A DNA stretch of 64,000 bases from GCF_054482595.1 NZ_CM137008.1, one strand, 5' to 3'. Shown: positions 39,825 through 40,380, counted from the stretch's first letter. Translations and numbers: made by a program. The notes: generated by a model not told the origin, from the sequence alone.

Positions 39825-39945
39825 TCATGAAGGCTGGATACACTTTGTTATCCGGCCATTGTGAATTAATGTTAATTTTTCTTCCAAATCTTTCCAATAA
39901 CGCTTTTATTATTTTCTATTTTTAGCTGGACTTTCCCTGTATTTA

Positions 39946-39961
39946 CTGATGATATATCCAG
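39946..39961. promoter_or_regulatory. LexA (SOS) box upstream of symE
   Basis: taCTGATGATATATCCAGat fits the CTG-N10-CAG core with AT-rich centre. Confidence 0.6.
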
Positions 39962-39989
39962 ATATTTAGCGCGGTGCGGATGTGCGCCA

Positions 39990-40070
39990 ACACACCCGCA
40001 CCGCTCATCACAATCACTATTTTCAAGGAATAGCAGTTATGACTGACACGCATTCTATTGCACAACCGTT
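39990..40070 (-). ncRNA. symR: putative SymR antisense sRNA overlapping the symE 5' UTR and start (approximate bounds)
   Basis: Placement inferred from the known symE/symR type I toxin-antitoxin arrangement; 9-bp perfect inverted repeat GCGGTGCGG/CCGCACCGC at 39971-40004; ends not determinable by eye. Confidence 0.3.
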
Positions 40071-40380
40071 CGAAGCAGAAGTCTCCCCGGCAAATAACCG
40101 TCAATTAACCGTGAGTTATGCGAGCCGCTACCCGGATTGCAGCCGTATTCCCGCCATCACCCTGAAAGGTCAGTGGCTGGAAGCCGCCGGTTTTGCCACC
40201 GGCACAGCGGTAGATGTCAAAGTGATGGAAGGCTGTATTGTCCTCACAGCCCAACCACCCGCCGCCGAAGAGAGCGAACTGATGCAGTCGCTGCGCCAGG
40301 TGTGCAAGCTGTCGGCGCGTAAACAAAAGCAGATACAGGAATTTATTGGGGTGATTGCGGGTAAACAAAAAGTTGCCTGA
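40039..40380 (+). CDS. symE: SOS-induced toxin-like protein SymE
   Basis: [33 protein letters not shown]...KQKVA (113 aa) with AAGGA SD; track ORF is N-extended through the UTR. Confidence 0.85.

Follow-up and report, generated by a model that had tools for sequence, protein, structure and literature searches.

A very probably intact symE/symR type I toxin-antitoxin-like module within the immigration control region in Escherichia coli XH990

Does the symE gene in this stretch of DNA still possess the LexA operator and the antisense RNA SymR of its Escherichia coli K-12 counterpart, and does it travel with, or anchor, the defence hotspot in which it lies? The window analysed here is the whole stretch of 64,000 nucleotides (64 kb), of which the 12 kb around symE are 100% identical to the chromosome of E. 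coli XH990 (NZ_CP019359.1), a human urine isolate. The locus is the immigration control region, with the left flank, yjiX-yjiA, ending at 37211 and the right flank, yjiS-yjiR, starting at 42613. An earlier note on this DNA had read the locus as symE with a LexA box and an antisense symR. All of the elements it named were found where it had placed them, and its reading is supported by a full-length Rfam match and by a LexA PSSM. We consider it very likely that the locus is a canonical symE/symR type I toxin-antitoxin-like module which is intact in XH990. As a discovery this is of small weight: symE/symR is an already known, textbook locus that is ordinary here except for its unusual defence neighbours, and the sequence-only reading proved accurate. 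Also of practical use are a grounded estimate of the XH990 LexA operator as a rare, slightly weakened allele, and the documentation of symER as a small conserved island amid swappable defence cassettes. The latter point bears on how the immigration control region is reshuffled and has precedent in the literature (PMC12707154, PMC10250203). RefSeq annotates the symE protein gene, and the feature tables of XH990 and BW25113 are without symR.

The symE coding sequence occupies positions 40039-40380 of the plus strand (ATG at 40039, stop at 40380), encodes 113 aa and corresponds to the RefSeq symE protein WP_021557502.1. A Shine-Dalgarno sequence, AAGGA (40025-40029, plus strand), lies 9 nt 5' of the ATG and within the stretch complementary to SymR. 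The protein scores 74.8 bits against Pfam PF08845 SymE_toxin (cut-off 29) and 226.3 bits against the NCBIfam SymE equivalog NF010128 (cut-off 132), the latter over residues 1-112 of its 113. Reading the gene as a pseudogene or decaying remnant was ruled out because the frame is intact and full length. A sequence search of the PDB with SymE returned no chain at E <= 1, and an AlphaFold monomer computed from a shallow alignment of 11 sequences (mean pLDDT 53.3, pTM 0.31) was too poor for testing the fold. The AbrB fold is a dimer-swapped fold. For SymE, the assignment to the AbrB/MazE fold would follow from the literature (PMC1891008, PMC11894785), where both the fold and the DNA binding of the MazE/AbrB (SpoVT-AbrB) swapped-hairpin proteins are reported for it; unlike MazE/AbrB, SymE acts as the toxic partner and not as the antitoxin, and has an extra C-terminal two-helix region. 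Overproduction of SymE is toxic, and an endoribonuclease activity was proposed from the overexpression phenotypes (PMC1891008). Thompson 2022, as related in PMC11894785, reports that SymE is without RNA cleavage and instead binds DNA non-specifically and condenses the nucleoid. Since RNA cleavage was not confirmed in that work, we take the RefSeq name 'endoribonuclease SymE' as provisional, and with the biochemical activity disputed even the label 'toxin' is uncertain.

The closest known system is symE/symR of K-12 (yjiW/RyjC; Kawano, Aravind & Storz 2007, PMC1891008), with which the window shares 107 of 113 SymE residues, a 77-nt antisense RNA of two hairpins, the symR -10 hexamer, the site at which the LexA box lies, and a place on the chromosome between yjiA and yjiS. 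At the six differing residues the window has Q22, L23, S26, C34, I99 and E102, and K-12 has H, V, G, Y, V and A, respectively.

The antisense partner, so far only anticipated from the presence of symE, was sought with covariance models. Rfam RF01809 matches the minus strand at 39968-40044 with 91.7 bits (gathering score 61, E = 4.7e-18) over model positions 1-77, which is its full length, and this locates symR, the 77-nt cis-antisense RNA that forms the antitoxin. The fold of the SymR-strand RNA consists of two hairpins and has an energy of -39.3 kcal/mol (z = -6.1), which none of 200 shuffles equals. The plus strand of the same span reaches -29.3 kcal/mol, a gap of 10 kcal/mol. Both the symE Shine-Dalgarno sequence (40025-40029) and the ATG (40039-40041) fall inside the SymR span, with the 5' end of SymR 3 nt past the ATG.

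A 9-bp perfect inverted repeat had been described at 39971-40004 and attributed to a structured 5' region of symE. The repeat is present: its arms, GCGGTGCGG (39971-39979) and CCGCACCGC (39996-40004), are perfectly complementary, and a repeat tool lengthens them to 14 nt at 93%. It coincides with the 3' hairpin of SymR (39971-40004, minus strand), which has a 15-bp stem and a 4-nt loop. On the minus strand the 15 pairs, two of them G-U, are continuous and the hairpin folds at -28.8 kcal/mol, whereas on the plus strand A-C mismatches interrupt the stem and the energy is -23.4 kcal/mol. Might the repeat nevertheless be a cis element of the plus strand, either the terminator of a deleted hsdR or a regulatory hairpin in the symE 5' UTR? 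It does fold there, at the -23.4 kcal/mol just given, and it lies downstream of an hsdR remnant; the Rfam matches of that strand, a weak partial symR match of 20 bits and a Ref66 match of 25.7 against a gathering score of 92, were both dismissed as falling below their gathering scores. We give this reading next to no credence, since it is the minus strand that carries the full-length match of 91.7 bits, the G-U pairs render the stem continuous on that strand only, no T-run follows on the plus strand, and symE retains the hairpin beside three different upstream cassettes as well as in other genera without hsdR. Furthermore, the 77-nt RNA has been experimentally detected in K-12 (PMC1891008). 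In our view the 'structured 5' region' is most aptly interpreted as SymR's 3' hairpin, encoded opposite to symE, and not as an element of the symE mRNA. A speF match in the Rfam search (17.1, gathering score 37) was likewise dismissed as sub-threshold.

Compared with K-12, where pair 4 of the 3' stem is an A-C mismatch, the stem in the window is fully paired. No T-run is found 3' of this hairpin on the minus strand and the terminator scan called no intrinsic terminator there, so the end of SymR is not at a canonical intrinsic terminator. The 5' hairpin (40007-40043, minus strand) has a loop at 40021-40027 which is complementary to the symE Shine-Dalgarno region. Positions 40022-40027, which belong to both the SymR loop and the symE Shine-Dalgarno region, are the most variable stretch of the module and adjoin invariant stems; they read TTCAAG in the window, CCTGGA in K-12 and TATAGG in the common allele, and the Shine-Dalgarno sequence itself is AAGGA in the window and GGAG in K-12.

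How far the RNA is conserved was assessed by scanning one genome per species with a plain DNA pattern composed of the 5' hairpin and the start codon. Of the 15 loci returned, 13 have a full-length SymR scoring 78-94 bits; they belong to E. albertii, Pseudocitrobacter, Kosakonia, Kluyvera, Silvania, Raoultella and Enterobacter. The remaining two, on a Peptostreptococcus contig and in a gammaproteobacterial MAG, were dropped, since no SymR reached the gathering threshold in them. Across an alignment of 16 enterobacterial SymR sequences, 98.6% of the cells are paired. Within the 3' hairpin, 8 of the 15 pairs are changed on both sides while 97.3% of the cells stay paired; in the covariation control none of 500 shuffles attains the observed value, and pairing falls to 24-52% when the partners are slid. 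The 14 pairs of the 5' hairpin are 100% paired in the 16 sequences, although the invariance of this stem is partly imposed by the search pattern, which contains it, and over-reading is unwarranted; its four invariant G-U/U-G wobbles are mismatches on the plus strand.

Some of these loci differ in the protein. The symE of Raoultella ornithinolytica is shortened to 95 aa, its C-terminal sequence diverging as if frameshifted, and its SymR is full length at 90.7 bits. Enterobacter sp. Bisph1 has a symE shortened to 98 aa with a full-length SymR of 78 bits. In Enterobacter sp. 10-1, EFASI (100 bits) and STAXI (61 bits) RNAs are found at 6723-7523 of the locus from that genome, 6-7 kb from its symER.

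The hexamer TAGAAT (40057-40052, minus strand) lies 7 nt 5' of the SymR 5' end, as its -10 element, within symE codons 5-7. The plus-strand sequence CATTCT at 40051-40056 is the one that was mutated in K-12, where its change to CACTCC abolished SymR (PMC1891008). TAGAAT or TACAAT is kept in all 13 of the other-genus loci, though the encoded dipeptide goes from His-Ser to Asp-Cys, and this retention of the hexamer despite the residue change points to selection on the promoter and not on the protein. Further upstream, TTCTGC (40075-40080, minus strand) may serve as a weak -35-like element; it leaves a 17-bp spacer and matches TTGACA poorly, and CTTCTG in this region is conserved across genera. 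As judged from these motifs, the symR promoter appears to be embedded in the symE reading frame, at codons 5-14. A sigma-70 consensus scan, which demands at least 4 of 6 matches in both hexamers, called neither a symE nor a symR promoter. We set this negative result aside because the symR promoter of K-12, which has the identical sequence, is experimentally active.

The third component is the operator. A LexA-like palindrome had been noted about 80 bp upstream of symE, and it is indeed there: the LexA operator (SOS box) TACTGATGATATATCCAGAT occupies 39944-39963 of the plus strand, 76 nt 5' of the symE ATG. It is orthologous to the yjiW/symE box of K-12, TACTGATGATATATACAGGT, and holds exactly the same position. 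Binding of LexA to the K-12 yjiW box is attributed to Fernandez De Henestrosa 2000, as cited in PMC1891008, and a heterology index (HI) of 7.9 has been published for this box (PMC11228462). In order to score the window, 16 K-12 LexA boxes (recA, lexA x2, umuDC, uvrB, recN x3, dinB, uvrA/ssb, sulA, uvrD, polB, ruvAB, dinI and dinG) were taken, each was verified as an exact match 5' of its gene in NC_000913.3, and a symmetrised PSSM was built from them. With 13.65 bits the window box is the best site among about 128,000 positions of the 64 kb. It passes as a member of the verified range, at its low end, the leave-one-out scores of the verified boxes being 13.2-26.3 with polB as an outlier at 3.65. 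The K-12 symE box scores 16.47 bits and the commonest E. coli allele (...ATCCAGGT) 15.42 bits.

By chance, however, 0.49 sites of this score are expected per 64 kb, and 39% of simulated sequences hold one. The score is not significant at the level of the window, and we rely instead on orthology and on positional conservation across genera. In all 12 of the other-genus loci with upstream DNA, the best LexA-like site, at 11.4-19.7 bits, is at the same place; it ends 4-10 nt before the SymR 3' end in those genera and 4 nt before it here. The spacers of these boxes differ, and the CTG-N10-CAG core is kept, except in Kosakonia, which has TTG. Within the window, TACTG-N10-CAG is observed 4 times against 0.96 expected, and the copy at 39944-39963 is the sole one with an AT-rich spacer. 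Two further LexA-like sites, the second and third best of the window by PSSM score, were treated as chance: one at 59210-59229 (13.07 bits) inside a 1746-aa ORF, and one at 17908-17927 (12.16 bits) about 185 nt 3' of an ORF ending at 17723.

The window box departs from that of K-12 by two substitutions, the common A15C and the rare G19A. The operator ends in ...ATCCAGAT (CCAGAT) in the window, in ...ATCCAGGT (CCAGGT) in the common allele and in ...ATACAGGT in K-12, and the numbers of complete E. coli genomes, out of 5426, that have these three forms are 21, 1977 and 440, respectively. The rare change, G to A at box position 19 (39962), places the window allele 1.8 bits below the common one. 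Such a cost, in so few genomes (21 of 5426), together with a score near the bottom of the verified boxes and the roughly 0.49 equally good sites expected by chance in 64 kb, would fit a palindrome that is degraded or fortuitous, in which case effective SOS control would be lost and symE silenced by SymR and Lon alone. We regard this as improbable, given that the CTG-N10-CAG core and the AT-rich spacer are intact, that the site has the exact orthologous position of the validated K-12 box, and that 12 of 12 other-genus loci have retained, with differing sequences, a box at the same distance from SymR. Moreover, the altered position is outside the core, where the common alleles are non-consensus too, and four of the verified boxes score no higher (recN3 ties at 13.65 bits; dinB, dinG and polB are lower). 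Judging from its sequence, the LexA operator is very probably functional, yet a rare and slightly weaker variant.

The probable -35 element of the symE promoter is TGGACT (39927-39932, plus strand). Where the upstream sequence analysed extends far enough, which is so for 10 other-genus loci, the motif CTGGACTT is conserved 5' of the LexA box, Kluyvera having the variant CTGGATT. Given a spacer of 17-18 bp from TGGACT, the symE -10 plausibly lies inside the LexA box. What can be read directly from the DNA comprises symE, SymR, the symR -10 hexamer and the operator, with their geometry and conservation.

LexA binding, SOS induction, repression by SymR, turnover by Lon and toxicity come from K-12 and would apply to XH990 by analogy. 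LexA sitting on 39944-39963 would overlap the symE -10 region and keep transcription off until DNA damage leads to LexA cleavage. SymR, expected to be a stable, constitutively made 77-nt RNA with its promoter inside symE codons 5-14, would match the symE mRNA perfectly over 39968-40044, a span that starts close to the 5' end of that mRNA and takes in both the Shine-Dalgarno sequence and the start codon, and this pairing would stop ribosome binding and modestly reduce the symE mRNA. Any SymE that is produced, presumably an AbrB/MazE-fold protein that is toxic when overproduced, would be removed by Lon.

The experiments behind this scheme were done in K-12, where symE has a LexA site and is induced by mitomycin C, SymR exceeds symE mRNA by about 10:1 and remains stable for over 60 min once rifampicin has been added, symE mRNA goes up about 3-fold when SymR is lost, repression by SymR is independent of RNase III and Hfq, and SymE is degraded by Lon (PMC1891008). 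For the loss of SymR, a 7-fold rise of the SymE protein is quoted in a review (PMC4147584). In one K-12 transcriptome symE was LexA-dependent, yet not induced by AZT (PMC11228462). A stable SymR and a Lon-labile SymE (PMC1891008) make the arrangement the opposite of a classical addiction or post-segregational killing module. Among the SOS type I systems of E. coli, tisB/istR-1 and dinQ/agrB likewise have a LexA-controlled toxin whose translation is blocked by a small RNA (PMC4147584). The tisB and dinQ toxins are small hydrophobic membrane peptides, whereas SymE is a soluble 113-aa AbrB-fold protein; the istR-1 and agrB RNAs are divergently or trans encoded with limited pairing, whereas SymR is a cis-antisense RNA with full complementarity to its target, and is not labile but stable.

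Why, then, is the module found among these particular neighbours? The absence of hsdS and mcrB, which had been remarked upon, is correct relative to K-12, where symER has a K-12-type hsdRMS (presumably type IA) on its left and mcrBC on its right; in the window a NERD/UvrD gene and an hsdR remnant stand on the left and GmrSD on the right. A 3' fragment of another type I hsdR stays at 39561-39824 and matches Pfam T1RH-like_C with 54.5 bits. The fragment shows 97% identity to the end of the intact hsdR of WP3-W18, which belongs to a type I system of M-S-R order; compared with that gene it lacks about 282 internal bp (positions 5503-5784 of the WP3-W18 locus), and the two alignment blocks overlap by 15 bp at 39614-39628. 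The place of mrr-hsdRMS is taken by a gene for a 616-aa protein with NERD and UvrD-like helicase parts (37535-39385, plus strand; RefSeq '3'-5' exonuclease'), which matches the PADLOC candidate defence family C3a187 'NERD+UvrD' with 469 bits. The full NERD/UvrD cassette is present in about 100 of the 5426 complete E. coli genomes.

On the right, a GmrSD homologue of 697 aa (40427-42520, minus strand) with GmrSD_N, GmrSD_C and DUF5655 domains is an uninterrupted ORF. RefSeq splits it into a 387-aa CDS and a 'DUF262 pseudogene' in XH990, 536 and O157:H7 TR01; E. albertii and another E. coli have the same intact frame of 697-698 aa, and the split is probably an annotation artefact. The GmrSD cassette is found in about 1360 of the 5426 genomes and the exact XH990 arrangement in about 18-23. 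Between the convergent symE and GmrSD genes there is a G+C-rich hairpin of 11 bp (40388-40413), with a folding energy of -20.7 kcal/mol for the plus strand and -20.1 kcal/mol for the minus strand; on the plus strand UAUUAUU comes after it. The terminator scan did not call this hairpin; it may be a terminator shared by symE and GmrSD.

Other strains combine different cassettes around the same module. In 536 and O157:H7 an EcoAI-family hsdRMS lies on the left and GmrSD on the right, and in WP3-W18 the M-S-R-order type I system is on the left and yjiS on the right, while XH990 has the NERD+UvrD gene followed by the M-S-R-type hsdR 3' remnant on the left and GmrSD on the right. LST200A has K-12-like hsdR, hsdM and S-subunit genes on the left, and on the right an IS1 that truncates symE. 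In that strain (locus 5001-5165) everything in symE beyond about codon 11 is lost to the IS1, with the LexA box and all of symR spared, and symR there is an orphan antitoxin RNA without a toxin.

It had been proposed that symE travels with or anchors the hotspot, an idea for which the literature has precedents. The immigration control region is known as Hotspot 36, a well-studied defence island, and symE/symR figures among its resident toxin-antitoxin systems (PMC12707154); in P. aeruginosa, symE has been suggested to help stabilise defence hotspots (PMC10250203). A role of symER beyond SOS, in which it would hold or organise the defence island through addiction or stabilisation, or as a hinge for recombination, would be compatible with the main explanation. 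In its favour, homology to K-12 is confined to 39908-40376 (470 bp, 92.5% identity) with unrelated cassettes on both flanks; three different hsd cassettes of type I, the K-12 type and the EcoAI family among them, are found 5' of symER, and mcrBC, GmrSD or yjiS 3' of it; BLAST coverage classes break at 39908/39914 and 40356/40376; and the suggestion from P. aeruginosa points the same way. The allele also looks like a mosaic, the 36 nt 5' of the box being identical to the M-S-R class and the last 24 nt of symE being of the GmrSD class, which is consistent with recombination inside the module, although this inference is based on few SNPs. We nevertheless judge an anchoring role unlikely. The gene is single-copy and present in 2871 of 5426 complete E. 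coli genomes but absent from the other 2555 (47%), IS1 can cut it without obvious consequence (LST200A), symER has no restriction genes next to it in Kosakonia, Raoultella, Kluyvera and Enterobacter, and the stable SymR and Lon-labile SymE of K-12 are the reverse of what post-segregational killing involves (PMC1891008). Thus the anchor idea is only partly supported: the island of homology between swappable cassettes stands, and the absence from 47% of the genomes speaks against it.

Going beyond the canonical module, a functional link could be imagined, in which breaks from self-restriction, e.g. after a cassette swap or a loss of modification, would trigger the SOS response and thereby derepress SymE, SymE would compact the nucleoid and so gain time for repair or re-methylation, and symER would serve as the hinge for cassette exchange, with the mosaic as its trace. 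We see this as a highly speculative proposal with little chance of being right. If it were true, the position of symE between type I and type IV restriction cassettes would be functional and not a historical accident, and the left and right cassettes would be exchanged independently across the 470-bp symER.

When symER of the window is compared with four alleles, six substitutions are private to the window (39962, 40206, 40248, 40333, 40335 and 40368), and all of them are to A on the plus strand.
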